Below, in pieces: positions 29,107 to 57,663 of a stretch of 64,000 bases of DNA (positions within the stretch are counted from its first letter, which is position 1; every line of letters begins with the position of its first letter). The position numbers were made by a program, and so were the translations under genes. The DNA lies in IMG/VR virus record IMGVR_UViG_3300028581_000012, one strand, 5' to 3'. Below the pieces are notes generated by a model, which was given only the letters and a program-made list of their open reading frames with translations, did no database searches and had not been told where the DNA came from. Origin of the DNA: a virus.

Positions 29107-29571
29107 ATGAAAAATTTATCACAAATAATTAATAAAGTTCTAAGAGAAGAACACGAAAATAAAAGTTCTAGATATATGTTCTTTTCAAATTTAGAACAGA
29201 TGAGAAGACAATGTGATTTGTTACTTGATTTGGACCACTCTATGATTGAAGAAATTCTTGAAAATGGCCACGATTGGGCTCAAGACCATATTTCTGAAGC
29301 TAAAAATAATATGGACCAAGTTTTTGATTTTTTAATGAATGAAGTTAACGCAGATTTCCAAAAAGACGATATGTACGACAACGAAGAAATGATGATGCAA
29401 GAAGGTCGTAAAAAAACAGGTACAAAACTTTGCGCTAGGGGATTGGCGTCCGCCAAAGCAAAATATGAGGTTCACCCCTCAGCCTATAGTAATGGACACG
29501 CAATACAAGTATGTAAAGGAAAAATTAAAGGACTTGACGGAAAGAGAAGATGTTCTGGTGCTTTTTGTTAA
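29107..29571 (+). CDS. Hypothetical protein with a leader ending in VLRE
   Basis: MKNLSQIINKVLRE...; basic Cys-containing C-terminal module AKAKYEVHPSAY. Confidence 0.6.
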   Translation: MKNLSQIINKVLREEHENKSSRYMFFSNLEQMRRQCDLLLDLDHSMIEEILENGHDWAQDHISEAKNNMDQVFDFLMNEVNADFQKDDMYDNEEMMMQEGRKKTGTKLCARGLASAKAKYEVHPSAYSNGHAIQVCKGKIKGLDGKRRCSGAFC

Positions 29572-30302
29572 ATAGACCTTAATATTTTATTTATAAGAAT
29601 TTCTAAGGACTCATTTTGAGTCCTTTTCTTTTTTGGTTTGTATGATGTCATTATTGGTTTTTGACCTTTACCTGTTTGTGTATCTTGTTTTTCAGCCCTT
29701 CTTTTTTGTTGACATGCAGCCCTTTTTTCAGATGTACTCATTTTACCTGCAACCCCAGCAGCTCTACATTTCGGATAAGAACCTTTAGATGTGTCACTTC
29801 GACCACAAGGAGGATGTTTACCATCTACTTTTCTACAAATATCAACCCAAGGACCTTTTGGTTGTGAAGAACCTTTAGGTTTCTTTTTTTTACCAAACCA
29901 TACGGCTAAATCTTCATTCAATGGAATTTTGTTTAAATCATACCATTCATTCATTTTTTTTCCGATTACTTCAATTGGGACTATTCTTAACTTACTGTCG
30001 GCATTTTGATTTATAATACCTCCATCCTCATCATTTTGTTTTTTGTGTTTTTTATTATAATGGGATATTTTTTTTGATTTTTGTTCAAGGTTTTTAACAT
30101 TTTTTCTATTAGATTCCAATGAACCATCATAACTATCGTATTCTAAATCTGCATTAAAATATTTAGAAACTTTTGTTTTAAAAGGGCCTAATTCACTTTC
30201 TTCCCAATCAATTTCACCCATAGTTAAAGGACCATTATAATATCCAGCATATCTACTTGAAGTTATTTCTTTTATGACTTTTTGAATAATATTTTCTATC
30301 AT
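29568..30302 (-). CDS. Hypothetical protein with a leader ending in VIKE and a basic Cys-containing module
   Basis: LAVWF...WVDI...CGR...YPKC; TATTTAT-N4-ATG. Confidence 0.6.
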   Translation of the reverse strand: MIENIIQKVIKEITSSRYAGYYNGPLTMGEIDWEESELGPFKTKVSKYFNADLEYDSYDGSLESNRKNVKNLEQKSKKISHYNKKHKKQNDEDGGIINQNADSKLRIVPIEVIGKKMNEWYDLNKIPLNEDLAVWFGKKKKPKGSSQPKGPWVDICRKVDGKHPPCGRSDTSKGSYPKCRAAGVAGKMSTSEKRAACQQKRRAEKQDTQTGKGQKPIMTSYKPKKKRTQNESLEILINKILRSI

Positions 30303-30374: not shown

Positions 30375-32261
30375 TTATCTCAATTCTTGTAAGTCGAATG
30401 AACGAACACCATCAACTGTGATACGTCCGTAGAAACGGTTGTTAACCATTTTCTTAGCGTATCTTGTCATTATACCTTTAATAGGTGTAAAGTTGAATGG
30501 GTTGTACATTGTAGGTGTTAATTGAAGTGGAACATATGGTGCATATACGTAACCAGTATCAAGAAGTGATGTACCTTTGTGTCCTAACAATACTTGGTTT
30601 GCTGGGAAGTAAGGGTCACGATATACTTGGTAACGACCTGCTAATGTACCAACTCTTTCAATACCCATGTTGTATTGGTCTTGCTCAGGAGATGCGTTTG
30701 ATACGTGGAAGTACTCAAGGTCATCAAAGATTGCAGAAACCTCAGAAGAAACAACAATCCAGTTAGCTCCACCACGAAGTGTAGACTTGTGGATTTGTGC
30801 TGACAATTGGTTGATTGCTGTAATCAAAGTTTGGTTCCAGTCTTTTTGAGTGTAAGAAGTTGTGTTAGACAATCTTCTCCATCCGTTGTAATCCCAACGT
30901 AAGTTCCAAGCCGCTCCTTTACGAAGGTCACGAAGAATCTCACGGTCAATTTCTGCAGCAACTTGCTCAGACAATAAAGCTGTTAATTCAGCTTCAGCGT
31001 CGATGTTGTGGAATGCAGAAACGTCTTGTGCCAATTCAGGAGACCATTGTGCTCTTAGTTTTCTTTCTGTCACAGATACAGTAACTGACTCAAGGTCGAA
31101 AGAAACCTCACCAATTTGGTCTTCGAATTCAAGTTCTTTGTAACGTCTGTAAGCCGCCTTGATAACTGTGTTAGCACCTGCTCCAGACCAAGCACTTGTA
31201 AGAGTTGCTCCTGAATAACCATCAATAGTTTGTGCGTTAGAACAAGATACACATACTGGTACTTGTGCGTCGATTTCTAAATATATAAAACCTGTTTGAG
31301 AACAGATATTATCATAAGAACCTCCGTTACCTGCTGTAGAACTTGCAAATCCACTACCAAAAGGGGCTGAAGTACTTGTTGAAGTTGGTCCTACAATACC
31401 TTGACCATATTTTTGAGTAACCACTCTGAATAATAATGGTGTGTATGTAGATGTCCCAAGGTTAGCAGCTGCTGCTGAACTTTCAGTATACAATACCAAA
31501 TTAGATAAAAACGCTTCGTTATCAATTTCTTGACCATCAGGTCCAATTAATTTACCAACACCCGCAGAAGAAAATCCTGACATAGCTACAAGGATTTTTC
31601 TATACTCAACACCCGCAATTGCACTTACAGCTGTTGTATATGCAGATGCGATAAGACTTCCATTTGACCAAGCAACTGTTGGTGTAGAACCTGTTACAGT
31701 TACAAACTGACCTTTTGAGTAATCGAATAAACCAGATGGATTCAATCCTGGTTCAGAACCTTCATAAAATAAATCATAAAGACTTCTAGTATAAGAAGGA
31801 TTGTAATCACCATTTGTGTTATTATAACCATCGTTAGTTTGTCCTTGCATACTTGGTGAACCGATTGGTCCATAATGTGTTCCTGAAGTGATACCCAAAT
31901 TATTTTGAACAGTACCACCAGAGTATCCTTGGATTTTAGGTACAAAATAGAACAATTTACCAATAGGTAAGTTCATTGCTTGTACAGAAACTAAATCGTT
32001 AGCCAACAATTTAGAGAATACACGTCTTACGATAGGGAAAACTACAGTTTCAAAAGAACCTGAGCTATCTGTAGACGCAGCTTCGTTAATTAGGTGAGAC
32101 GCTTGGTTTTCATATAACTGTGCCATGTTCTCTTTGATGTGTCCTTTAAGACCGTCTAGGAATCCTAATCTATCCCATTTGTTAATTGTATCTTCTTTGA
32201 TAACTTTAAGGTGTTTTAACCCGATGTTACCAACAAGACCTGATTCTAATAATGCTCCCAT
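30375..32261 (-). CDS. Major capsid protein (T4 gp23-like)
   Basis: VSVQAMNLPIGKLFY, RKLRAQWSPELAQD, AEIDREI, YAPYVPL, FTPIKGIMTRY. Confidence 0.95.
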   Translation of the reverse strand: MGALLESGLVGNIGLKHLKVIKEDTINKWDRLGFLDGLKGHIKENMAQLYENQASHLINEAASTDSSGSFETVVFPIVRRVFSKLLANDLVSVQAMNLPIGKLFYFVPKIQGYSGGTVQNNLGITSGTHYGPIGSPSMQGQTNDGYNNTNGDYNPSYTRSLYDLFYEGSEPGLNPSGLFDYSKGQFVTVTGSTPTVAWSNGSLIASAYTTAVSAIAGVEYRKILVAMSGFSSAGVGKLIGPDGQEIDNEAFLSNLVLYTESSAAAANLGTSTYTPLLFRVVTQKYGQGIVGPTSTSTSAPFGSGFASSTAGNGGSYDNICSQTGFIYLEIDAQVPVCVSCSNAQTIDGYSGATLTSAWSGAGANTVIKAAYRRYKELEFEDQIGEVSFDLESVTVSVTERKLRAQWSPELAQDVSAFHNIDAEAELTALLSEQVAAEIDREILRDLRKGAAWNLRWDYNGWRRLSNTTSYTQKDWNQTLITAINQLSAQIHKSTLRGGANWIVVSSEVSAIFDDLEYFHVSNASPEQDQYNMGIERVGTLAGRYQVYRDPYFPANQVLLGHKGTSLLDTGYVYAPYVPLQLTPTMYNPFNFTPIKGIMTRYAKKMVNNRFYGRITVDGVRSFDLQELR

Positions 32262-34138: not shown

Positions 34139-34852
34139 TTATTTACCTAAATAATCCGATAATCTTTTCATTAAGTCAACAGATTTATCTAAACCACTAT
34201 TACCACCACCATATGTATTTTCGTGTTCAGCCAATTTTTCTTCATATCTTGGTCTGTCTTCAGCATTTAAATATAGATAAGCTCCAGGTGTTGATGGTGA
34301 AGATACAAGGTCAAAACAAATTAACTCAAAATCATCTTGTACTTCGTTTTCGTCACCCTTTTTTACCAAAGACCCGACTCCACGAGAAGATACTCCCATG
34401 GTGACTCCTTGTCTCATAAGATTTGCGGCAACATCACCCTTTGATGTTACTATTCCTCTTTCGTGAAAACCGGGGCTAGTTAATAATTTAATTTTACCCA
34501 TTAAAATATTTCCTTCCCACCACGTTTCAGTAATGAGGTGAGATACTCTATCTAAATCTACTAACGATGATTCAGGGTGATTAAGTTCTGATATAGACAT
34601 TCCTCTTTTGATAACATCTTGGTATTTTTCAGATTCTCTTTTTAATATTTTTTCGGGATAAACTCTTCCGTTTCTATTTGGAACACCGTATTTCTGTAGT
34701 GTTGCATAAAAAACAAATGGTTTTGAATGGTCAAGTTGTCCGTATGATTCTCTAATTATATTTTGGTTTCTTGGTTCGTTTGGATTTATAATTCCTGCAT
34801 CCCATTCAACAAGAATTCCTTTACCCGTATCTTTTGGTCCTAAAATTTTCAT
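34139..34852 (-). CDS. Prohead core protein protease (T4 gp21-like)
   Basis: NRNGRVYP, ELNHP, VSHLIT, GVSSRGVGS, FDLVSSPSTPGA. Confidence 0.93.
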   Translation of the reverse strand: MKILGPKDTGKGILVEWDAGIINPNEPRNQNIIRESYGQLDHSKPFVFYATLQKYGVPNRNGRVYPEKILKRESEKYQDVIKRGMSISELNHPESSLVDLDRVSHLITETWWEGNILMGKIKLLTSPGFHERGIVTSKGDVAANLMRQGVTMGVSSRGVGSLVKKGDENEVQDDFELICFDLVSSPSTPGAYLYLNAEDRPRYEEKLAEHENTYGGGNSGLDKSVDLMKRLSDYLGK

Positions 34853-41198: not shown

Positions 41199-42008
41199 TT
41201 AAATTCTATTTCTATAGTTTCTTAAAAGTTCTTTTTTTGTAAAGTGTGGAGGAATATGTTTTTGAATAATGTTTAAAATACTTTCTTCCAAATTACCTAC
41301 TTCATCTTCACAAGTATCATATACTACTTTATCTTCGTTTTCTGTCATATCATCTGTAACATACATTCCATAGTTACCATCAACAACATAATGACAATTA
41401 CCTGTTTCTTCATATTTGGCATCGGCATCCATCACCATACTTTCAAATTCTCTTTTTTGTTTTTTGAAAAAAATGTCTCCAAACCCTTCTTTTAGTTCAT
41501 CATCGGATGTGCTTGCAAAATCTTTGATTTGTTTTTTTGTCATAGACTTAACAACATCTTTAACTTTACCTCTATAACTTTTTGGTATATCGGACATTTT
41601 TTTATAACCTTTTTCAACTGAATAAGCAGCACCCATTAAACCTCTTTGTTTTTTTGATACGGCCTTTTCATACATTTCAGACTCTGTTGGCATTCCGTCA
41701 CCATAACTATCTTGACCATCATCAGTTCCTGGTCCAACTTGTTTAGGGCTTTGTGTTCTTTTTCCCATTTCGAAGTCCATAGGGTCTTCCATATCTTCTT
41801 CAAGTTCTTCTTCATATGTAACAAACGCTTTTCCTGATGCCTTAGCTTTATTTTCATCATCAGAGCCTTTTTTCACATTTAATACTCCAGCCTGTTCCAT
41901 AATCTTACCATATAGTAAGTTTAATTGTCCGTTTGATAACTTTTCTAAAGTTCCCATTGAAAACCCTTCGTGGAGTAATCTTTGAAGTTTATAATTCATA
42001 TGTTTCAT
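41199..42008 (-). CDS. Hypothetical acidic protein with a DUF3008-like segment
   Basis: KAVSKKQRGLMGAA...SMTKKQIKDFAST; several hydrophobic-x-E junctions. Confidence 0.55.
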   Translation of the reverse strand: MKHMNYKLQRLLHEGFSMGTLEKLSNGQLNLLYGKIMEQAGVLNVKKGSDDENKAKASGKAFVTYEEELEEDMEDPMDFEMGKRTQSPKQVGPGTDDGQDSYGDGMPTESEMYEKAVSKKQRGLMGAAYSVEKGYKKMSDIPKSYRGKVKDVVKSMTKKQIKDFASTSDDELKEGFGDIFFKKQKREFESMVMDADAKYEETGNCHYVVDGNYGMYVTDDMTENEDKVVYDTCEDEVGNLEESILNIIQKHIPPHFTKKELLRNYRNRI

Positions 42009-45207: not shown

Positions 45208-45711
45208 TTAGTCTTTTTGTGTTGGTGAGTTAAAGTTTTGTATGTAACGAAATAAATTATTATACGCAGTATTCATAGCAGCATATTTTGGGAAATTTGC
45301 TTTGTTAGTGTTTTGGAAGGCAAAACAAAAATTACCATCTAGAAATTGTTCATTACCTTTTGTAATTTTAGGAATACAAGCCGATTGGAGTTCTTTACCT
45401 CTTACCCCTTTTCCTATCACAAGACCTTGTATTTTACCTATATTACTTAAAATTGTTTGTCTAGCTTTAGAAATTTCCATAGGTGTATTATAAAATGTTT
45501 GACCGAAAATAGTTGACCCGTTTGGTGTTTGTTTTTCACCCTCAGCATTAGAATAATTCGGCATTGCAGATTTAACAGCATTTACGTAAGCAGTTACGTA
45601 TGGGGTGGGATTAAATCCGTTTTCTTCCATTAAATAATTTCTTGATGTCGCATTTTGGTGCATTTCCAAAATACGTTGTTTTTCTGATTCTGAGATTATA
45701 AACTTGTTCAT
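45208..45711 (-). CDS. Leader-family protein (MxKFIISESEKQRILEMH leader), putative virion-packaged
   Basis: First 18 aa almost identical to 54956-55990 while the body is unrelated; late motif at 45729-45735. Confidence 0.65.
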   Translation of the reverse strand: MNKFIISESEKQRILEMHQNATSRNYLMEENGFNPTPYVTAYVNAVKSAMPNYSNAEGEKQTPNGSTIFGQTFYNTPMEISKARQTILSNIGKIQGLVIGKGVRGKELQSACIPKITKGNEQFLDGNFCFAFQNTNKANFPKYAAMNTAYNNLFRYIQNFNSPTQKD

Positions 45712-45742
45712 AATTTTTTTATTTAATAATAAATATACTAAT

Positions 45743-47757: not shown

Positions 47758-47817
47758 AATAATTAAAAAATATTGATTTATATTTTTAGTTGGATTACTT
47801 TTAAAAAAAAACACAAT

Positions 47818-49854
47818 ATGATAGAATCTGCAGACAACAACGAAAAAGATAAAGCTAAAAAACCTGAAACAGGCTCTAAAACTCTCGTCCTTGATAATTT
47901 TTCAAGAGATTTGATTAAGGCGGCCGAAGAAGGTAAATTAGACCCAATAATTGGTAGAGAGCAAGAAATAAATAGAATTGCCCAAATTCTATCAAGAAGA
48001 AAGAAAAATAACCCAATTATTATTGGTGAACCTGGTTGTGGAAAAACTGCAATTGTAGAAGGATTGGCTAAAAAAATATTTGAGGGGGATTGTCCTCAAA
48101 ACCTTGTTGGTAAAAGAATTGTTTCTTTAGATTTAACTTCAGTAGTTGCAGGAACAAAATACAGAGGTCAGTTTGAGGAAAGAATGAAAGTGATAATTGA
48201 AGAATTGTACGCAAATCCTGATATTATTATCTTTATTGATGAAATCCACACTATGATTGGAGCAGGTAACGCTTCAGGTTCTATGGATGCATCAAACATA
48301 TTTAAACCCGCTCTTTCAAGAGGTGAAATACAATGCATTGGTGCAACGACCTTAGAAGAATATAGAAAAAATATTGAAAAAGATGGGGCATTAGAAAGAA
48401 GATTTCAAAAAGTAGTTGTTGACCCATCAACAAAAGAAGAAACATTAGAAATATTAAAACAATCAAAAGACCGATATGAAAAACATCATAAAGTAAAATA
48501 TAGTGAAGACATTTTAAAACTTTGTGTTGAGTTGGCAGATAGATACATCACAGACAGAGAATTTCCCGATAAGGCTTTTGATATTATTGATGAGGTTGGA
48601 GCAAGAAGTCAGGTTGAAATAAAACTTCCTGAAGTTATTGAAAAACTAAAAAAAGAAGCTCAAGAAATAAAATCTTTGAAAATTGAAGTAATCAATAAAC
48701 AAAAATATGAAGAAGCCGCAGATTTAAGAGATAGGGAAAGAAGAGTTTTAGGTGAATTACAAAAAGAAAAAGAAAATTTTGAAAAAAATAGAGACCTATA
48801 TAGAAAAGAAGTGACGGAAGATATTGTTTATGATGTTACATCTTTGATGACAAAAATTCCAATTAATAAAATAACAACAGATGAATCAATTCAATTGGCA
48901 TCTTTAAATGAGGTTTTAAATTCAAAAGTAATTGGTCAAAATGAGGCTGTTTCAAAAATTGCAAGAGCAATTCAAAGAAACAAGGTTGGATTAAACGACC
49001 CTAAAAAACCAATATTTAGTGGACTTCTAATTGGAAATTCAGGTGTTGGTAAAACTGAATTGGCAAAACAATTAGCAAAACATATGTTTAATAGCGAAGA
49101 TGCACTTATTAGATTAGATATGAGTGAATTTTCAGATAAGATTGCAACCTCAAAATTAACAGGAACATCACCAGGTTATGTGGGGTATGAGGACGGTTCA
49201 CCATTTTTAAATAAAATTAAAAACAAACCTTACTCTGTTATTTTGTTAGACGAAATTGAAAAGGCACATCCTGAAATTTTTAACGTATTTTTACAAATGT
49301 TAGATGAAGGGTTTTTAACGGATGGTCACGGAAGAAAAATTAACTTCAAAAATTGTATAATTCTAATGACATCTAATGTTGGGACTAGAGTTGTTCAACA
49401 GTTCGGTACAGGTGTTGGTTTTTCAACATCACATAAAGAAGAAACAAAAGATGAAGAAATCAAATCTTTATTGGAAAAAGAATTATTCAAAAAGTTTGCT
49501 CCTGAGTTTATTAACAGATTTGATGACATCGTATATTTTAAAGACCTTAACGATGATGATTTAATGAAAATCCTTAATTTGGAACTTGAAAAATTATACA
49601 GTAGAGTTTTGAATTTAGAATATAATGTTCAAGTTGAAGATTCTTTGAAAAATCATTTAATTAAAGTGGGAACCGATACAAGGTTTGGAGCTCGTATTTT
49701 AAAACGGACCGTTCAAAAATGGATTGACGATGCAATTACGGAAAAAATTCTTTCAGATAACCCAGAAAAAAATTCAACATTTGTGTTATCTTTTGATGAA
49801 AAAAATATTAAAACTGAAGTTAAAATTAAAAAACCAACAAAAAGAAAAAAATAA
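47818..49854 (+). CDS. clpC: ClpC-like AAA+ ATPase lacking the Clp-N domain
   Basis: GEPGCGKT / FIDEIH, UVR-like KQKYEEAADLRDRE, GNSGVGKT / LLDEIEKAH and a GVGF ClpP-docking-type loop. Start placed at the ATG at 47818. Confidence 0.88.
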   Translation: MIESADNNEKDKAKKPETGSKTLVLDNFSRDLIKAAEEGKLDPIIGREQEINRIAQILSRRKKNNPIIIGEPGCGKTAIVEGLAKKIFEGDCPQNLVGKRIVSLDLTSVVAGTKYRGQFEERMKVIIEELYANPDIIIFIDEIHTMIGAGNASGSMDASNIFKPALSRGEIQCIGATTLEEYRKNIEKDGALERRFQKVVVDPSTKEETLEILKQSKDRYEKHHKVKYSEDILKLCVELADRYITDREFPDKAFDIIDEVGARSQVEIKLPEVIEKLKKEAQEIKSLKIEVINKQKYEEAADLRDRERRVLGELQKEKENFEKNRDLYRKEVTEDIVYDVTSLMTKIPINKITTDESIQLASLNEVLNSKVIGQNEAVSKIARAIQRNKVGLNDPKKPIFSGLLIGNSGVGKTELAKQLAKHMFNSEDALIRLDMSEFSDKIATSKLTGTSPGYVGYEDGSPFLNKIKNKPYSVILLDEIEKAHPEIFNVFLQMLDEGFLTDGHGRKINFKNCIILMTSNVGTRVVQQFGTGVGFSTSHKEETKDEEIKSLLEKELFKKFAPEFINRFDDIVYFKDLNDDDLMKILNLELEKLYSRVLNLEYNVQVEDSLKNHLIKVGTDTRFGARILKRTVQKWIDDAITEKILSDNPEKNSTFVLSFDEKNIKTEVKIKKPTKRKK

Positions 49855-49901: not shown

Positions 49902-50936
49902 ATGAACATAGATAAATTTAAAGAACTTCTTTCCGTACCATCAAAAACATATCAAGAAGAAGATATGGTTGAATACATATGTGATGAGTTGGAAAAAATT
50001 CAAGGAGTTACATATTACCGTGATTCTATGATGAATATCTATGTTACAAAAGGTATTTTGGAAGAAGATGAATATTATCCAATGTTTATTGCTCACACCG
50101 ATACCGTTCACACCAAAATTGATAAAATTGTTGTTAAAGAAGAAAAACTTCAAAGACCTTATACTTTTGGAAAAACTTTTGACAACACAGAAGTTGATGT
50201 ATTAAAAGCATATGACAAATATGACAACCCAACAGGTATTGGTGGTGATGACAAATGTGGAATTTTTATTTGTTTGGAATTATTAAAACAATTAGATAAA
50301 GTTAAGGTTGGTTTATTTGTTTCAGAAGAAACAGGATGTCACGGCTCATCAAAATGTGATGAAAACTTTTTACAAGATGTTGGTTATATTACACAATACG
50401 ATGCACCTGGAAATCACCTAATTTCCGAGATTTGCTCGGGAGTTCGTTTATTTGAAAGAGATAGTGAATTTTTTAATATTGTGATTCCAACAATTGAAGA
50501 GTCATTTAAAAATGAAATGTTAGTTCAATCTCACCCATATACCGATATATCACAACTTAAAAAGAAAATTGATGTTTGTTGTATTAATATGTCTTGTGGA
50601 TATTACAATATGCATACCTCAAATGAGTTTATATCAATTGATGATGTAATTTGTGCAATTGATGCAGGAAAAAATATGGTTGAAAAACTTGGATTAAAAA
50701 AATACAAATACGAATATAAACCAATTGTTTATACGCCAAATACCGTTATGAATTCACTAATTGATTTTGATTATGATGAAGATGAGTTGGTCCATAATTT
50801 GGATTCAATTGAAGTGATTGAAGAAAGTGAAGGAATTTATATTATGGATTCTTATCAAGGGGAATCTGTTTTTATTTCAGATGAAAATTTACCAGCACTT
50901 TATGAAATAATAAGAGAAAGACTTCTTGGATTATAA
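49902..50936 (+). CDS. M20/M28-type zinc metallopeptidase
   Basis: AHTDTVH, GGDDKCG, SEETG, GYYNMHT. Confidence 0.8.
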   Translation: MNIDKFKELLSVPSKTYQEEDMVEYICDELEKIQGVTYYRDSMMNIYVTKGILEEDEYYPMFIAHTDTVHTKIDKIVVKEEKLQRPYTFGKTFDNTEVDVLKAYDKYDNPTGIGGDDKCGIFICLELLKQLDKVKVGLFVSEETGCHGSSKCDENFLQDVGYITQYDAPGNHLISEICSGVRLFERDSEFFNIVIPTIEESFKNEMLVQSHPYTDISQLKKKIDVCCINMSCGYYNMHTSNEFISIDDVICAIDAGKNMVEKLGLKKYKYEYKPIVYTPNTVMNSLIDFDYDEDELVHNLDSIEVIEESEGIYIMDSYQGESVFISDENLPALYEIIRERLLGL

Positions 50937-52567: not shown

Positions 52568-53407
52568 ATGAAAATATTATATATGGCCAGAGCACAAAAA
52601 AAATATCATTATATCTATAAAACTATTTGCTTAATAACTAATCGGTTTTACATTGGAATGCACTCAACAGACAATATTAATGACAATTATTTAGGTAGCG
52701 GTAGAAGACTATGGAATTCAATTAATTATCACGGTAAAGAAAACCACAAAAAAGAAATATTAGAATTTTTTTCTAATAGAGAGGAGCTTAAATTGAGAGA
52801 AAAAGAAATTGTCAATAAAGAACTTATCAATGACGTTTATTGTATGAATTTACAATTAGGTGGTGGAGGTGGGTTCAAAGATGACTCACATATGGTGAAA
52901 ACATGTAAAGCGGGGAATGAAAAATTTATAAAAAACATGTTGGACCCTGAATACAGAAAAATATTTTCACAAAAAATGTCAGAAGCAAATAAAAAAAGTT
53001 TTGAGTTAGGTAAACGTGTTGGGGTAAATTTTTATGATTGGACAGGTAAAAAACACACGGAGGAATCCAAACAAAAACTTAGCTCAAAAAAAAAGAACAC
53101 AGGTATTGGTTCCGATAATTCAGTTTGGGGGATGAAATGGATGAATAAAGAATGTAAAAATAAAATGGTAAAGCCAGAAGATTTCACCTATTATTTATCT
53201 ATGGATTGGCAATTTGGTCAATATCTTAGTGAAGAAAAAAAATTAATTTTAAGAAATAGTTTAGATAATGCTAGAAAATACTACAAACCGTCCTGTACGG
53301 GTAGAAAGTGGATTAATAAAGATGGGAAAAATAAAAGAGTATATGAAGATGAACTGAAAAGTTTTTTTGATGATGGTTGGGTTTTAGGTTGTTTAATAAA
53401 AAAATAA
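52568..53407 (+). CDS. GIY-YIG (Seg-like) homing endonuclease with NUMOD3
   Basis: YIYKT...FYIGMHST...YLGSG...E...NL; GKKHTEESKQKLS; two C-terminal KWxNKxGKNK repeats. The true start may be the ATG at 52583. Confidence 0.85.
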   Translation: MKILYMARAQKKYHYIYKTICLITNRFYIGMHSTDNINDNYLGSGRRLWNSINYHGKENHKKEILEFFSNREELKLREKEIVNKELINDVYCMNLQLGGGGGFKDDSHMVKTCKAGNEKFIKNMLDPEYRKIFSQKMSEANKKSFELGKRVGVNFYDWTGKKHTEESKQKLSSKKKNTGIGSDNSVWGMKWMNKECKNKMVKPEDFTYYLSMDWQFGQYLSEEKKLILRNSLDNARKYYKPSCTGRKWINKDGKNKRVYEDELKSFFDDGWVLGCLIKK

Positions 53408-53423
53408 TTGTTTTTATAAAAAA

Positions 53424-53454
53424 TTTGGAACTTAAAAAAAAACGTGTATCTTTG
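53424..53454 (+). promoter_or_regulatory. Bacteroidota primary-sigma promoter (cassette 1)
   Basis: TTTG - N19 - TATCTTTG. Confidence 0.75.
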
Positions 53455-53491
53455 TATTGTAATCATCCATAAACCCTTAAAAATTAAAAAA

Positions 53492-53695
53492 ATGAAAAAA
53501 ACAGTAATTTCTTTCTCCGTAGCACTATTTACAAAATTAGTAGTTATTCCATTTCTTAGTCAAACGCCATTTTTTACTCCATTGCCAGCATCATTGTATG
53601 GTTGGGTATATGATTTAAACGTATTAACAATTTTTGTGTTTACATTTACTATTCCAATAATTACTTACAAACTCATAAAAAATAAATTAGTATAA
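53492..53695 (+). CDS. Small membrane protein (67 aa, two hydrophobic segments)
   Basis: MKKTVISFSVALF...; start moved to the ATG at 53492 because the track start lies inside the promoter. Confidence 0.6.
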   Translation: MKKTVISFSVALFTKLVVIPFLSQTPFFTPLPASLYGWVYDLNVLTIFVFTFTIPIITYKLIKNKLV

Positions 53696-53733
53696 AATAA
53701 AAAACCCCCAATAATTAAGGGGGTTTTTATTTT
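53696..53733. terminator. Bidirectional terminator (cassette 1)
   Basis: AAAAACCCCC-loop-GGGGGTTTTT between convergent genes. Confidence 0.8.
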
Positions 53734-53749
53734 CAGATTTGTTTTAGAA

Positions 53750-54226
53750 CTAATCCGCACTATTTCTTTCAGTTGGTAATTTTTCATTTGGATTAAATTG
53801 TTGGAGATGTCTTTCATAATCTCTATACTGTTTTTGAGTACCTGTTAATTGTTGGTACAGGGCCCCTGGTGAAGATGGGTTTTCTGTTTCTCCAAATTTT
53901 GTGTCTCTTGTTCCGGCAGCATATGACATATCCGTACCTATAAACGCACAAACCGTGTTGAAATGGTATCCAAGTTGTGATTTTACGGTTGGTGATGTTT
54001 GAAGTACTTTAATAACCGCGTTATATAAAGGTTTTGAATTAATAGCATAAATTGATTTTCTTGCCAAGGCATCGTCAGTACCAAGACCTCCCATTGCGGT
54101 TAATAAGTCACCAACAATTTTTTTAGCAGTACCAACTAACTTTGGGTCATTAGTTTCTTCTTCATTTATAACTCGTCTAACGATTCGAGCCAAGTCATTT
54201 TCTGTTAATCTAACAATTCTTTTCAT
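53750..54226 (-). CDS. Leader-family protein (MKRIVRLTENDLARIVRRVINE) with an annexin-repeat-like motif
   Basis: Leader 21/22 identical to that of 56618-57112; LLTAMGGLGTDD resembles the annexin motif AMKGLGTDE. Confidence 0.65.
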   Translation of the reverse strand: MKRIVRLTENDLARIVRRVINEEETNDPKLVGTAKKIVGDLLTAMGGLGTDDALARKSIYAINSKPLYNAVIKVLQTSPTVKSQLGYHFNTVCAFIGTDMSYAAGTRDTKFGETENPSSPGALYQQLTGTQKQYRDYERHLQQFNPNEKLPTERNSAD

Positions 54227-54246
54227 AATTTTTTTGTTATAAGTTA

Positions 54247-54275
54247 ATTTTTTTATTATCTTTGTTTAATAAATA
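54247..54275. repeat. 29-bp element, copy 1 (contains the late motif on the minus strand)
   Basis: ATTTTTTTATTATCTTTGTTTAATAAATA, identical at 55991 and 57133. Confidence 0.85.
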
Positions 54276-54322
54276 CGCCCCAATTTAAAAAAGTTCAGTT
54301 TTATTAAATATTTTCATAAAAA

Positions 54323-54353
54323 TTTGGAACTTAAAATAAAATTAGTATATTTG
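54323..54353 (+). promoter_or_regulatory. Bacteroidota primary-sigma promoter (cassette 2)
   Basis: TTTG - N19 - TATATTTG; the leader AATCATnCATAAACCCTTAAAAA is shared with cassette 1. Confidence 0.75.
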
Positions 54354-54383
54354 TAGAGTAATCATTCATAAACCCTTAAAAAA

Positions 54384-54959
54384 ATGAAAAAATTAATTCT
54401 TACACTTTTTGCAATTTTACTTTATGTGAATGCTTACACACAAACAATAGACTATTCAAACTTTGACTATTTATTGTATGAAAAAAAAGTTATAGAAAAA
54501 ATTAATAACTACCGAAGTGGCATTGGTTTTAAAAAGTTATATACCTCGAATACTTTGAAAAACTTTACATCGGTAAACACATCAACTCAAAATTCAACTC
54601 AAGACAGGGCGTTTCATTTAAAGGCCGATGACACTAATGATACAATAAACAGAAAATTATATAGTGAACTTTATAACCTTACTGGAGGTAAATGTGGAAT
54701 AAAAGAACCACCAAGCGTTTTTATTAATGAAGGATATGGAGAAATAATATCAGTAGTTAGTGGTAAATATGATACCTATGATGAATTGGCAATCGAAGTA
54801 TTAAATGCCTGGTTACATTCTCCTCCACACAAAAATACAATTGAAACAAAATTTGTTAATTTAGATGAGTATGCGGGGTTAATTAGTTGTTCTGCAAAAA
54901 TTTCAAAAAGTGGTAAACTATATACTGTAGTTAACTTTGTTTCGGTTTCTAATTTTTAA
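54384..54959 (+). CDS. Secreted CAP/SCP-domain protein
   Basis: Signal peptide MKKLILTLFAILLYVNA; INNYR, GEII, AWLHSPPHKNTI. Confidence 0.75.
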   Translation: MKKLILTLFAILLYVNAYTQTIDYSNFDYLLYEKKVIEKINNYRSGIGFKKLYTSNTLKNFTSVNTSTQNSTQDRAFHLKADDTNDTINRKLYSELYNLTGGKCGIKEPPSVFINEGYGEIISVVSGKYDTYDELAIEVLNAWLHSPPHKNTIETKFVNLDEYAGLISCSAKISKSGKLYTVVNFVSVSNF

Positions 54960-55990
54960 ATATAAGGTTTTACGTATTTAGCATATCTTTGATTTGATGA
55001 TGTTGTATTACCTTCTGAAATTCCCATCATATATATTAATTTCGAATCACTTTTTGATACGTTAGTTGATGGTGGAAATATTTTATCAATAGGGTAAGAA
55101 TTATTATATTGTTGACTTGTAATTTTAGTAATTCTTTTACCTGTAGGGTCCCAATAAAAATTCCACCTAACTAAAGGCACGGTATATGGGTTTTTCATCA
55201 CTCCTGGATTCCATTTAATTTCAAACGCGGAAATTTTGTCGGCACTATTTCTAATTATTTGTGGACATTGGTTACTGTAATCATCAGGTCGACCGGCACC
55301 TCCTTGTGAGGTTTTTCCGTTACAAAAATAAGAACCTGTCAAAACCATTTTAGGAGATATGTCATTGAACGTTTTAATACCACTAATATTATATATTTCA
55401 TCTATTGTTTTAAATACCATCCTACAAGTTATAAATTGACCGGCATTTGGGTATGTTACTGTGTCCTTATCTTTATCAGTTTTACCACCAGTATCAACAA
55501 CCCAAGATTGAGTTGAAATTTTTGTAACATCAGCCTTTTTAATATTGAATTTTGCTAATTTCTGAAACAATGATGTTTCAAAAGACGAACTTCTTTTTAA
55601 CGCTAAATCTTTATTTTTTTGGTATAAATCGGTTTCTGTTGGGGTGACTACCTTCCAATCGTTTGTGTGGTCAAATCCTGTTGGTTTACCTCCCCATGAA
55701 TTACTAGCTCCCGCAGTAACTGTAATGTTAGAACAAATCATACCACCAGAACTTGTTCTCATTTTTTTTGCTTCTGGGTTAGCATCTATTTTGGCAATTA
55801 AATTTGTAATAAATGTATCAATAAATGCCGATGGGTCAGTCGCACCCGCAGCATAAGTACTTTTTTCAGAATGTTGGATATTAACCTCTTCAGTTAATAA
55901 TGGTTTTCTATTAAGAACCTTTGCAACTTCTTTAATATGCATTTCCAAAATGCGTTGTTTTTCTGATTCTGAAATTATAAATTTACTCAT
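54956..55990 (-). CDS. Leader-family protein (MSKFIISESEKQRILEMH) with a possible OmpA-C-like segment
   Basis: Leader shared with 45208-45711; ITVTAGAS...NKDLALKRS resembles the OmpA-C NxxLSxxRA motif. Confidence 0.6.
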   Translation of the reverse strand: MSKFIISESEKQRILEMHIKEVAKVLNRKPLLTEEVNIQHSEKSTYAAGATDPSAFIDTFITNLIAKIDANPEAKKMRTSSGGMICSNITVTAGASNSWGGKPTGFDHTNDWKVVTPTETDLYQKNKDLALKRSSSFETSLFQKLAKFNIKKADVTKISTQSWVVDTGGKTDKDKDTVTYPNAGQFITCRMVFKTIDEIYNISGIKTFNDISPKMVLTGSYFCNGKTSQGGAGRPDDYSNQCPQIIRNSADKISAFEIKWNPGVMKNPYTVPLVRWNFYWDPTGKRITKITSQQYNNSYPIDKIFPPSTNVSKSDSKLIYMMGISEGNTTSSNQRYAKYVKPYI

Positions 55991-56019
55991 ATTTTTTTAT
56001 TATCTTTGTTTAATAAATA
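55991..56019. repeat. 29-bp element, copy 2
   Basis: Identical to 54247-54275. Confidence 0.85.
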
Positions 56020-56076
56020 TACGACAAGTTTATAAAAGTTTATTTTTTCAAAAACTTAAAAATTTTTTCAAAAAAA

Positions 56077-56107
56077 TTTGGATATATAGAAAAAACCCGT
56101 ATCTTTG
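56077..56107 (+). promoter_or_regulatory. Bacteroidota primary-sigma promoter (cassette 3)
   Basis: TTTG - N19 - TATCTTTG. Confidence 0.75.
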
Positions 56108-56145
56108 TATTGTAATCAGTTATTAACCATCTAAAAATCAAAATT

Positions 56146-56586
56146 ATGAAAAAATTGTTTTTTGTTTCCCTTTTATTATTTTTTGTAACGTCGTTAAGTG
56201 CCCAAACAAAGTATAACTTTTTTGGTTTATATGGTAATGATTACTATGATATTACCGATAAAAAAATGAAGTATGAGGATATTTTATCGTCTGATAATTT
56301 GGGTCAAAAGTTATTAAACGGAGGGTTTAATCATTATGAGATTAATTTAGAAAAAAAGACTTTTACTCATAATTATGTTACTTTGGAAACTGGGGAACCA
56401 GACCGAAAAGAAGTTGTCAGTAAAATTACTAACCTTGTATATGGTAAAGGATTTATTAAGTTTAATGTTACAACTAAAGACTTTGGTAAATTAAACTTGG
56501 TCATTAATAATGACGATTCGGATGATATTGGTCTTGTTGTGGTTTTTAAAGAATCTGATAAAACCTACGCGGCGGTATTTAAATAA
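56146..56586 (+). CDS. Secreted/periplasmic hypothetical protein
   Basis: Signal peptide MKKLFFVSLLLFFVTSLSA|Q, a typical Bacteroidota SPI site with Gln at +1. Confidence 0.7.
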   Translation: MKKLFFVSLLLFFVTSLSAQTKYNFFGLYGNDYYDITDKKMKYEDILSSDNLGQKLLNGGFNHYEINLEKKTFTHNYVTLETGEPDRKEVVSKITNLVYGKGFIKFNVTTKDFGKLNLVINNDDSDDIGLVVVFKESDKTYAAVFK

Positions 56587-56616
56587 AAAACCCCCCCATT
56601 AAGGGGGGTTTTATTT
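56585..56616. terminator. Bidirectional terminator (cassette 3)
   Basis: A tract, C tract, loop, GGGGGGTTTT; near copy of the cassette 1 terminator. Confidence 0.8.
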
Positions 56617-56617
56617 A

Positions 56618-57112
56618 TTATTTTTTTAATAAATTTTGTACTTCAAATTTGTAACTATTACCTGCCTTAACATTCGGGTCTGCGGGTGCTCCTTGGGAAC
56701 TACAGAATTGTCTTGTAAGGTCATTAATTTTTCCGTATCCAAAACGGAAATAAGGACCTCCGTCCGTTATTGATGATACTCCATCGTATAATGTAGAAGG
56801 GTTCATTGAATCGTAACTTGTATCGTTTTTATCAGATTGAGTTGTTCCACATGCTCCGACCATTTTACTCACATCGTATTTTTTATTACCTTTGTAGTCA
56901 ATAACCATACCATTGAATGAAACCTCAAAAGGAATCATCATAGGATAACCAGGTCTTTTTTGTTTTGCGGCAATTGTTGGGTTTGACATAACAACTAAGT
57001 ATTTCAACTCACCTCGTCCAGCATCTACAATTGGAGTATTAGATTGTTCGTTTATTACTCGTTTTACGATACGAGCCAAGTCGTTTTCTGTTAATCTAAC
57101 AATTCTTTTCAT
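56618..57112 (-). CDS. Leader-family protein (MKRIVRLTENDLARIVKRVINE) with an unrelated body
   Basis: Leader shared with 53750-54226. Confidence 0.65.
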   Translation of the reverse strand: MKRIVRLTENDLARIVKRVINEQSNTPIVDAGRGELKYLVVMSNPTIAAKQKRPGYPMMIPFEVSFNGMVIDYKGNKKYDVSKMVGACGTTQSDKNDTSYDSMNPSTLYDGVSSITDGGPYFRFGYGKINDLTRQFCSSQGAPADPNVKAGNSYKFEVQNLLKK

Positions 57113-57132
57113 AATTTTTTTTTTATTAGTTA

Positions 57133-57161
57133 ATTTTTTTATTATCTTTGTTTAATAAATA
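57133..57161. repeat. 29-bp element, copy 3
   Basis: Identical to 54247-54275. Confidence 0.85.
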
Positions 57162-57189
57162 TACCTTACTTTGAAAAAGTTCAATTTTT

Positions 57190-57663
57190 ATGCAAACATT
57201 TCTTCCATACTCAGATTTTAGAAAATCATTAGAGTCATTAGATAACAAACGTTTAGGTAAACAACGTGTAGAGGCCTATCAAATTATTTCAGCAATTACA
57301 GGTAGACTTCGTAAAGATGGAAAACCATATAAGGGTTGGTTAAATCACCCTTGTTCTGTTATGTGGAAAGACTATGTTAATTCACTTAAACAATACTATA
57401 ATGATTGTATTGATGTTTGGGTTGAACGAGGTTTTAAAAATACAATGGAACACGAACATATTGAAGGTGAGTTTGTTTTACCTCATTGGTTGGGTAATGA
57501 AGAATTCCACTCTTCACATAGAGCAAATTTATTACGTAAAGATTTTGAGTATTATTCTAAACATAATTGGACTGAAGACCCCAATGACCCATATGTGTGG
57601 ATGGACGATAAGGGTTTGTGGTATAAACAAATTGTTGGAAGTAAAAAGCGAATTTACTTATAA
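57190..57663 (+). CDS. Pyrimidine-dimer DNA glycosylase family protein (DenV-like, MSMEG_6728 type)
   Basis: MQTFLPY...LDNKRLGKQRVEAYQI...HPCSVMW...SHRANLLRKD. Confidence 0.8.
   Translation: MQTFLPYSDFRKSLESLDNKRLGKQRVEAYQIISAITGRLRKDGKPYKGWLNHPCSVMWKDYVNSLKQYYNDCIDVWVERGFKNTMEHEHIEGEFVLPHWLGNEEFHSSHRANLLRKDFEYYSKHNWTEDPNDPYVWMDDKGLWYKQIVGSKKRIYL

Follow-up and report, generated by a model that had tools for sequence, protein, structure and literature searches.

Leader-tagged late genes and exported early genes in a three-module phage island

The window analysed here is a stretch of 64,000 nucleotides (nt) of viral DNA from IMG/VR record IMGVR_UViG_3300028581_000012, in which three tail-to-tail two-gene modules span positions 53424-57163. 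In each module, a plus-strand gene for an exported protein, preceded by a host-type promoter, faces a minus-strand gene that has a late-type promoter element and encodes a conserved N-terminal peptide leader in front of a body of its own. We put at about even odds (roughly 0.5) the reading that the minus-strand genes encode cargo that is loaded into the phage head, processed by a protease and aimed at the envelope, and that, together with genes for early exported proteins, they make up two-gene modules inherited as units. The anatomy of the modules, the breadth of the leader tag, selection on the leader as a peptide, the promoter dichotomy between the two genes and the inheritance of the pairs were observed, and it is from these that we infer packaging, cleavage, timing and partner function.

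The six genes of the island alternate in strand and lie between a homing endonuclease gene and a denV gene (Table 1). All plus-strand products begin with Met-Lys-Lys and have a signal peptide with Gln just past the predicted cut. The initial annotation had described three units of common layout (a host-type promoter with an exported gene, a terminator or overlapping stops, and a convergent leader gene) whose six gene bodies are unrelated; open reading frames (ORFs), motifs and folds bear out the layout, and BLAST clustering and profile comparison agree that the six bodies are mutually unrelated. Only three classical signal-peptide genes are present in approximately 92 kb of genome sequence, namely the three plus-strand module genes, and three of the four leader-tagged genes in the same sequence are their partners. 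In relatives (loci are designated L001, L002 and so on), the island lies between denV and a conserved gene for 377 amino acids (aa); denV forms its border in L001, L004, L007 and further relatives, and its content varies from one module (L004) through two leader genes with one partner (L010) to three modules (L001 and the window). The homing endonuclease gene that borders the island in the window (52568-53407; PHROG 314, 1.7e-35; GIY-YIG-like N-terminus) belongs to a border family that also occurs in L010 and L017, and not in L001 or L004.

Breadth and classes of the leader tag

When the 164-aa product of unit 3 was used as a protein query, full-length relatives were returned together with many proteins that share only the first ~22 residues. 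A degenerate-codon pattern of the leader was found in 36 viral contigs as well as in 119 or more metagenome stretches, and a total of 262 leader-tagged ORFs in 163 loci represent 146 body families (B numbers below); these counts are lower bounds because another family (S1) includes leaders similar to the first leader class that the search pattern missed. A profile of the first 30 leader residues matched 8,110 representative clusters of public data at E ≤ 1e-3 and 1,091 at E ≤ 1e-10, and no model in Pfam, NCBIfam or PHROGs covers the leader.

Two or more interchangeable leader classes can be distinguished, class L1 in units 1 and 3 and class L2 in unit 2 and in an unpaired gene at 45208, the latter two having been correctly recognized as sharing their peptide leader in the initial annotation. 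One body family bears both tags, L2 in the window (45208-45711) and L1 in the orthologous gene of L001. Strict L1 copies number one to four per genome. Proteins with two or three leaders, each copy followed by its own body (P0070, P0073, P0077 and P0123), are numerous among the best leader matches and resemble fused modules or polyproteins. A third class of N-terminal tag, M-K-I-I-I-T-E-x-Q, heads many small proteins of the same phages (families S2, S9 and S25; L029, L047, L054, L062 and others). Same-strand arrays of four or five leader genes were also observed, with gaps of 12-23 nt and no promoter motif in between (L016:5082-7472, L018:10131-11945 and L040:4908-7298); preceding genes in these arrays end in a conserved P-T-Q-K, so that the conserved junction runs from a C-terminus into the next leader.

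Selection on the leader peptide and its reading as a head-loading signal

Positions 17-22 of the leader, which were not imposed by the search pattern, read [KR]-R-V-I-x-E across 130 body families. Glu22 is 99% conserved, position 21 is free, and directly past Glu22 the entropy rises from below 0.7 to above 3 bits, in a segment that is rich in Glu, Gln and Pro. Arg18, Val19 and Ile20 are each encoded by three or four codons, and in codons 18-20 synonymous differences exceed nonsynonymous ones (11,464 versus 5,251), which places selection on the peptide and not on the DNA. In the L2 family of the 344-aa protein of unit 2, widely differing leader variants end in hydrophobic-x-Glu (Glu34) right before the body, in the form L-x-E. 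The AlphaFold2 (AF2) model of this protein (predicted local distance difference test score, pLDDT, 84) has a leader helix at residues 8-23, a low-confidence segment (<50) at 20-33 and the body from approximately residue 35.

In T4, diverse internal proteins share only a 10-residue capsid targeting sequence that is removed at an L/I-x-E-type site (PMC9026906, PMC3012670), and the prohead protease gp21 cuts after Glu in L/I-x-E (PMC9026906). Considering that conservation of the leader ends at V-I-x-E22, that its logo is similar to the gp21 site and that a T4-type prohead protease of the Peptidase_S77 family is encoded in the window, we read the leader as a putative capsid-targeting propeptide of a new sequence type, for which packaging and cleavage are deduced from sequence. 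Of the five large contigs with leader genes, four encode an S77 protease, among them each of the three with a completeness of at least 90%. The pattern [KRQ][IVL][IVL]xE occurs within the first 32 residues of 10 of the 69 window proteins compared with 1.5 expected, and the major capsid protein is among them. Three other window genes that neighbour the head genes (29107-29571, 29568-30302 and 41199-42008) encode N-terminal leader-like helices that end in K-V-L-R-E, K-V-I-K-E or R-L-L-H-E, and their products are additional candidate substrates of the protease, judging from these motifs.

It is also conceivable, although very improbable, that the leader serves a different machine as its recognition tag, for instance a modifying enzyme or a neighbouring cluster of a ClpC-like unfoldase, DnaK and an M42 peptidase. 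In several relatives, one or two leader genes do lie between the M42-like peptidase and ClpC-like genes (L001:13755-14402, L011:8704-9357, L104 and L159). The corresponding window genes (49902-50936 and 47773-49854) are adjacent, with no gene between them and thus no leader gene at the ClpC position; no enzyme family consistently co-occurs with the leader, and its commonest neighbours (denV, the 377-aa gene, the peptidase and ClpC) are merely syntenic. A tag-associated modifying enzyme, radical SAM or other, was sought and none co-travels with the leader genes in the collected loci, radical-SAM genes being absent. A double-glycine bacteriocin leader was likewise rejected, as there is neither a Gly-Gly nor a C39 peptidase nearby; a frequent 165-aa Cys-containing neighbour (S8) has no Pfam match.

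Bodies of the leader-tagged proteins

The number of Cys residues per body family is skewed (none in 72 families, one in 9, two in 49, three in 2 and four in 6), and because of this bias towards even numbers the bodies look disulfide-bonded and extracytoplasmic. No leader-tagged body has a signal peptide. A late cytoplasmic protein that is suited to an oxidising cell-wall setting needs an exit other than Sec, and travel in or on the virion would be the obvious route.

Few bodies match known families. The OmpA-like domain of the 344-aa protein was recognized by structure (Foldseek E 2.6e-4; TM score 0.53-0.59 depending on the target; VIA Z 8.0-8.4), nearly all of the top 30 matches being OmpA-like, and its family has invariant N126, L129 and R133 in the form N-x-x-L-x-x-x-R, similar to the OmpA motif; the Pfam OmpA model gave no match. 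Another leader protein matches PG_binding_1 at 3.3e-11 and a third one matches it weakly, and Annexin and Lcl_C each match single leader-tagged families. The 158-aa protein of unit 1 contains a short annexin-like GLGTD motif only, and its identification as an annexin was rejected since neither the protein nor its family has a Pfam or Protein Data Bank sequence match, Annexin matching a different leader-tagged family. Toxin families of Pfam are absent from the 143 + 80 leader-tagged proteins searched, and nothing of this kind was found for the three window proteins. Family B5, to which the 164-aa protein belongs, is distantly related to B4 (hhalign 93%), and this is the only pair of body families with detectable homology; bacterial relatives of the 164-aa body were not found in a scan that used leader-derived patterns only.

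A different interpretation of such bodies is that the leader is a docking plug by which exchangeable binding domains, as adhesins or decorations, are held on the virion exterior, and that the early exported partner masks the matching host surface or envelope receptor, as T5 Llp does with FhuA, the receptor of pb5. Cys parity of the disulfide type and lectin-like or annexin-like matches among the bodies would suit this interpretation, as would the adjacency of the T5 llp and pb5 genes (PMC9586334), and internal leader copies could be repeated docking helices. However, peptidoglycan-binding domains would be useless outside a Gram-negative cell, an invariant Glu at the boundary of conservation with a free position before it is the signature of a protease site rather than of an interface, and most partners are soluble non-lipoproteins and not outer-membrane lipoproteins. 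We therefore regard outer docking as improbable.

Several points weigh against the reading of these proteins as head-loaded, envelope-aimed cargo. The leader was absent from all 50,697 phage records, T4-type phages included, and so from every cultured phage among them; tblastn with the two leaders gave no T-even match. With 22-30 residues it is twice as long as the T4 capsid targeting sequence and unrelated to it, and a short x-E motif is weak evidence by itself. The bodies look periplasmic or extracellular, whereas T4 internal proteins act in the cytoplasm, and this appearance would fit display on the outer virion equally well. Gene calls, signal-peptide calls and family clustering were made with simple heuristic scripts, and the loci are related to one another and not phylogenetically independent. 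Fold matches of the 146-aa exported protein of unit 3 place no functional constraint on the partner. Further points on the same side, which concern the pairs, are given below.

Regulatory sequences of the modules

Throughout this text, early and late are classes assigned from promoter motifs alone. Over all loci, a late-type motif lies upstream of 137 of the 140 leader genes and of none of the partners, and a host-type promoter lies upstream of 27 of the 39 partners and of none of the leader genes, so that the layout first described in the window recurs in relatives together with its promoter split. In the window, the late motif TATATTTAT occurs 11 times compared with 4.1 expected, and none of 100 shuffles reached 11. 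The initial annotation had reported an identical 29-nt element containing this motif before the three minus-strand genes; the element is indeed exact in all three and contains the motif, and its exact length is 26 nt. A 21-nt core of it has three exact matches and one match with three mismatches compared with 0.07 expected. The 26-nt element was also considered as a host promoter for the plus strand and rejected, as TTTG stands at the right spacing in unit 1 only.

Promoter and 5' leader had been described as shared by units 1 and 2; the host-type motif was found in all three units, with the early-promoter blocks being 69-73% alike across 105 nt. A terminator type and peptide leader common to units 1 and 3 had also been proposed, in agreement with the bidirectional GC stems of both units and with a 145-nt block (leader codons plus upstream sequence) that they share at 89% identity. 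In unit 2, the convergent stops overlap by 4 nt. The conserved sequences lie exactly at the module borders, and none is conserved between the two genes of a pair.

Exported partners and inheritance of the pairs

The partners have signal peptides of the Bacteroidota type, and most of them are predicted soluble non-lipoproteins. The 67-aa protein of unit 1 has no family match, and a similar 74-aa transmembrane (TM) protein is paired with a relative of B1 in L025. For the 191-aa partner of unit 2, matches to Pfam CAP (E 0.05, below the cut-off) and PHROG 16914 (4.6e-5, below any curated cut-off) were obtained. The AF2 model of the 146-aa partner of unit 3 is all-beta (pLDDT 81), with weak lipocalin-like matches at E 0.03-0.1.

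Of 77 downstream genes that converge on a leader gene, 55 encode signal-peptide or membrane proteins, compared with 8% of other genes. Counted by family, exported proteins make up 12 of the 24 convergent neighbour families and 27 of the other 493 (Fisher p 8.6e-9), and no such enrichment is seen among neighbours on the same strand. Body families are bimodal: B3 (8/8), B5 (7/7), B6 (8/8), B7 (5/5) and B4 (8/9) are always or mostly found in arrays that end in an exported partner, and B2 (0/6) and several more are never found there. The pairs B7-S3, B5-S3, B3-S3, B4-S16 and B6-S10 persist to 25-40% identity with changed flanks (B7-S3 in four contexts and down to 37%, B5-S3 down to 25% and 36%), which indicates linkage and not independent assortment. 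A search begun from partner family S3, which removes ascertainment through leader genes, gave a convergent L1-leader gene in five of six contexts, the sixth being a host chromosome. An argument from partner swapping (99% identical S3 genes next to different bodies in L018 and L040) was weakened, since B3 is still present in both arrays.

The two genes might, however, have no functional coupling: late cargo-type genes and early secreted-protein morons would then simply be interleaved, with strand set by time class as in T4, a possibility that we take seriously without favouring it. Pairs would in that case persist only since the recombination-prone conserved sequences (divergent promoters, 5' leaders and leader codons) lie outside the pair, in a form of PeSL-like shuffling. 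The conserved blocks at the module borders mean that recombination alone could keep pairs together, and there is precedent for this (PMC2839356, PMC4122927). S3 adjoins at least five unrelated cargo families, clade by clade, and the partners of B4 and B5 (S16 and S3) are unrelated although these two cargos are homologous; family-level assortment is not one-to-one, which also counts against the favoured reading. Three further observations likewise speak for uncoupled genes, and all five weaken the case for cognate immunity: B1 occurs in three downstream situations (next to an S3 partner, next to a small membrane protein, or lacking a partner of its own), approximately two thirds of leader genes lack an exported partner, with tandem arrays of as many as five, and host bacteria carry S3 with no leader gene nearby. 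An uncoupled arrangement does not readily account for 12 unrelated exported families sitting tail-to-tail with leader genes, for the bimodality of the body families, or for the strict order seen in five distinct islands, where one or more late genes precede a single gene for a secreted protein; a rough count gives ~1e-4 for this under random order.

The initial annotation proposed a candidate effector-immunity or exclusion array and, as a check on it, fixed co-occurrence of plus- and minus-strand genes among relatives. Individual pairs are retained to low identity while their flanks change, and at family level S3, B4 and B5 do not assort one-to-one; the proposed array keeps the linkage and the exported partners in its favour and loses support from the partnerless majority, the tandem arrays and the host S3 genes. 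A more specific version, in which each module is a matched pair of a virion-delivered, envelope-acting cargo and an early periplasmic partner (beta-barrel or membrane protein) that binds or counters the same cargo from later kin phages, is in our opinion unlikely. It would make the module a swappable cassette for kin-specific superinfection exclusion or for protection from lysis-from-without, which is equally doubtful, and hosts could have captured orphan partner genes (tandem S3 in Crocinitomicaceae) as phage defence, a suggestion that we offer with the same reserve.

Proposed course of events

If the minus-strand products are head-loaded cargo, the following course can be envisaged. The minus-strand gene would be expressed late; its small product consists of an amphipathic leader of 22-30 residues, an acidic linker and an unrelated body. 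Like the capsid targeting sequence of T4, the leader would direct the protein to the prohead core, where the T4-type prohead protease may remove it past the conserved Glu (V-I-x-E22 in L1 and L-x-E in L2), a position at which Asp blocks cleavage in T4, and the body would ride in the virion to the envelope of the next cell. The plus-strand gene would be read early from its host-type promoter and give a Sec-exported periplasmic or membrane protein. Recombination at the flanking blocks of divergent promoters and leader codons could move the pair as one unit, with the terminator common to both genes. Finally, and this is the weakest step, the exported partner might behave like an exclusion protein and act on or against the envelope target of the cargo.

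Should the leader prove to be a head-loading signal, sequence alone would reveal which proteins are delivered by a large uncultivated group of jumbo phages, including thousands of unannotated clusters. The T4 principle of capsid targeting would then extend to Bacteroidota phages with a new tag and with cargo aimed at the envelope rather than the cytoplasm, and the tag might be used as a packaging handle for engineering leader-bearing phages. As a genomic rule, the regular pairing of leader genes with early exported proteins is new, and cargo/counter-cargo modules that decide which related phages share a cell may be put forward as a hypothesis. The occurrence of S3 homologues in hosts hints at a way in which genes for phage exclusion might become defence genes of the host.

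Genome context and likely host

The window is AT-rich (30.6% GC), and the genome record of approximately 91-92 kb is estimated to be 30% complete; relatives bearing leader genes reach 270-290 kb. A T4-type large terminase was also found in the Pfam/PHROG search of window proteins. The source is a large T4-like jumbo phage, probably of freshwater Flavobacteriales, and the region is a hyperplastic accessory island. By capsid protein, the nearest cultured phages are Microcystis phage Mel-JY01 (42.5% identity) and Flavobacterium phage vB_FspM_immuto (41.9%). The capsid protein has 628 aa; the Gp23 profile spans residues 361-613 only, and tblastn matches fall into two pieces that cover about half of it, implying a large extra N-terminal or inserted region.

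Genes of the S3 family are present on chromosomes of freshwater Crocinitomicaceae/Flavobacteriales metagenome-assembled genomes, singly or as two in tandem (L174:3505-4444, L175:4001-4444 and L163:2007-2944). One of them is 61% identical to the window gene 56146-56586. They adjoin a DEAD-box helicase gene, with no leader gene nearby, and close relatives differ in whether they have the second chromosomal copy. These homologues indicate which group the hosts probably belong to and suggest that genes have passed between host and phage, in one direction or the other.

Table 1. Positions of the module genes, their regulatory sequences and other relevant genes in the window
Feature	Position	Strand	Remarks
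Host-type promoter, unit 1	53424-53454	+	Bacteroidota sigma-A-like; TTTG-N19-TAnnTTTG
Early gene, unit 1	53492-53695	+	67 aa, predicted exported/membrane; signal peptide with Q at +1, C-terminal TM
Bidirectional intrinsic terminator, unit 1	53701-53732	.	GC stem flanked by A-run and T-run; -15.4 / -16.6 kcal/mol on the two strands, z -2.4 / -3.2
Late gene, unit 1	53750-54226	-	158 aa, L1 leader, body family B1; leader residues 1-22 at 54161-54226
Late promoter / 5' leader element, copy 1	54249-54274	-	Exact 26-nt repeat with late-type motif
Host-type promoter, unit 2	54323-54353	+	TTTG-N19-TAnnTTTG
Early gene, unit 2	54384-54959	+	191 aa, predicted secreted; signal peptide; weakly CAP/SCP-like
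Late gene, unit 2	54956-55990	-	344 aa, L2 leader; OmpA-like domain at residues 30-195, then C-terminal domain without assignment
Late element, copy 2	55993-56021	-	Exact 26 nt at 55993-56018; TATATTTAT at 56013-56021
Host-type promoter, unit 3	56077-56107	+	TTTG-N19-TAnnTTTG
Early gene, unit 3	56146-56586	+	146 aa, predicted secreted beta-barrel, partner family S3; AF2 model, signal peptide
Bidirectional intrinsic terminator, unit 3	56587-56612	.	GC stem
Late gene, unit 3	56618-57112	-	164 aa, L1 leader, body family B5; two invariant Cys
Late element, copy 3	57135-57163	-	Exact 26 nt at 57135-57160; TATATTTAT at 57155-57163
denV-type pyrimidine dimer glycosylase	57190-57663	+	Right-hand border of the island; Pfam Pyr_excise 2.8e-21
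Unpaired late gene	45208-45711	-	167 aa, L2 leader; late motif at 45729-45737
Major capsid protein, T4 gp23-type	30375-32261	-	Pfam Gp23 1.8e-73; leader-like K-V-I-K-E at residues 19-23
Prohead serine protease, T4-type	34139-34852	-	Presumed processing enzyme; Pfam Peptidase_S77 5.4e-23; PHROG 207 4.8e-42

Comparison with known systems

In polymorphic toxin-immunity cassettes, the N-terminal part used for delivery is conserved, the C-terminal bodies are swapped and a small variable partner gene stands next to each; orphan partners occur in other genomes. The present modules differ from them in that the searches revealed no toxin domain, in that the producing cell exports the partner and has the cargo in its cytoplasm, and in that the two genes are convergent with different predicted timing. 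The PeSL cassettes of T4-type hyperplastic regions (PMC2839356, PMC4122927) are similar in that unrelated accessory genes lie between conserved regulatory sequences, the apparent points of exchange, and in that an island between conserved genes varies in content among close relatives (here one to three modules). However, the conserved block here consists of divergent late and early promoters with leader codons and not of an early promoter fused to a stem-loop, and the moving unit is a convergent gene pair.

As far as our searches show, the literature contains no description of a swappable array of several modules in which leader-tagged cargo genes face exported partners, and no paper combining capsid targeting with Flavobacterium was found. 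The initial annotation knew of no described system with this layout, for which two arrangements, in T5 and T4, nevertheless provide precedent. In T5, the gene of the exclusion lipoprotein Llp adjoins that of the receptor-binding protein pb5 (PMC9586334); an exported-protein gene thus stands next to a late gene, and the two are matched functionally through a host envelope component, whereas few of the partners here are lipoproteins, the cargos are small proteins with a leader, and up to three modules occur per island. In T4, the virion lysozyme gp5 is inhibited by Spackle (gp61.3), which is made early and resides in the periplasm (PMC7677548), and it is comparable to our partners as an early signal-peptide protein of the periplasm that could neutralise an envelope-acting protein from a later-arriving virion. 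No sequence relation to Spackle was seen, and, unlike in T4, the two genes are adjacent here and the partner families are many and unrelated, with the interaction being hypothetical.

The T4 internal proteins IPI, IPII, IPIII and Alt (PMC3012670, PMC9026906) differ from the leader-tagged proteins in several respects: the leader here has 22-30 residues instead of 10 and no sequence likeness to theirs, it comes in two or three interchangeable classes and also in multi-leader proteins, the bodies look periplasmic or extracellular and not like cytoplasmic anti-restriction proteins (IPI), and many of them are paired with early exported proteins. Packaging, too, is a prediction here. What the two systems have in common is a T4-type head module, a short N-terminal propeptide on unrelated, fast-changing, small late proteins, an (L/I)-x-E-type end of this propeptide and a small number of such genes per genome.

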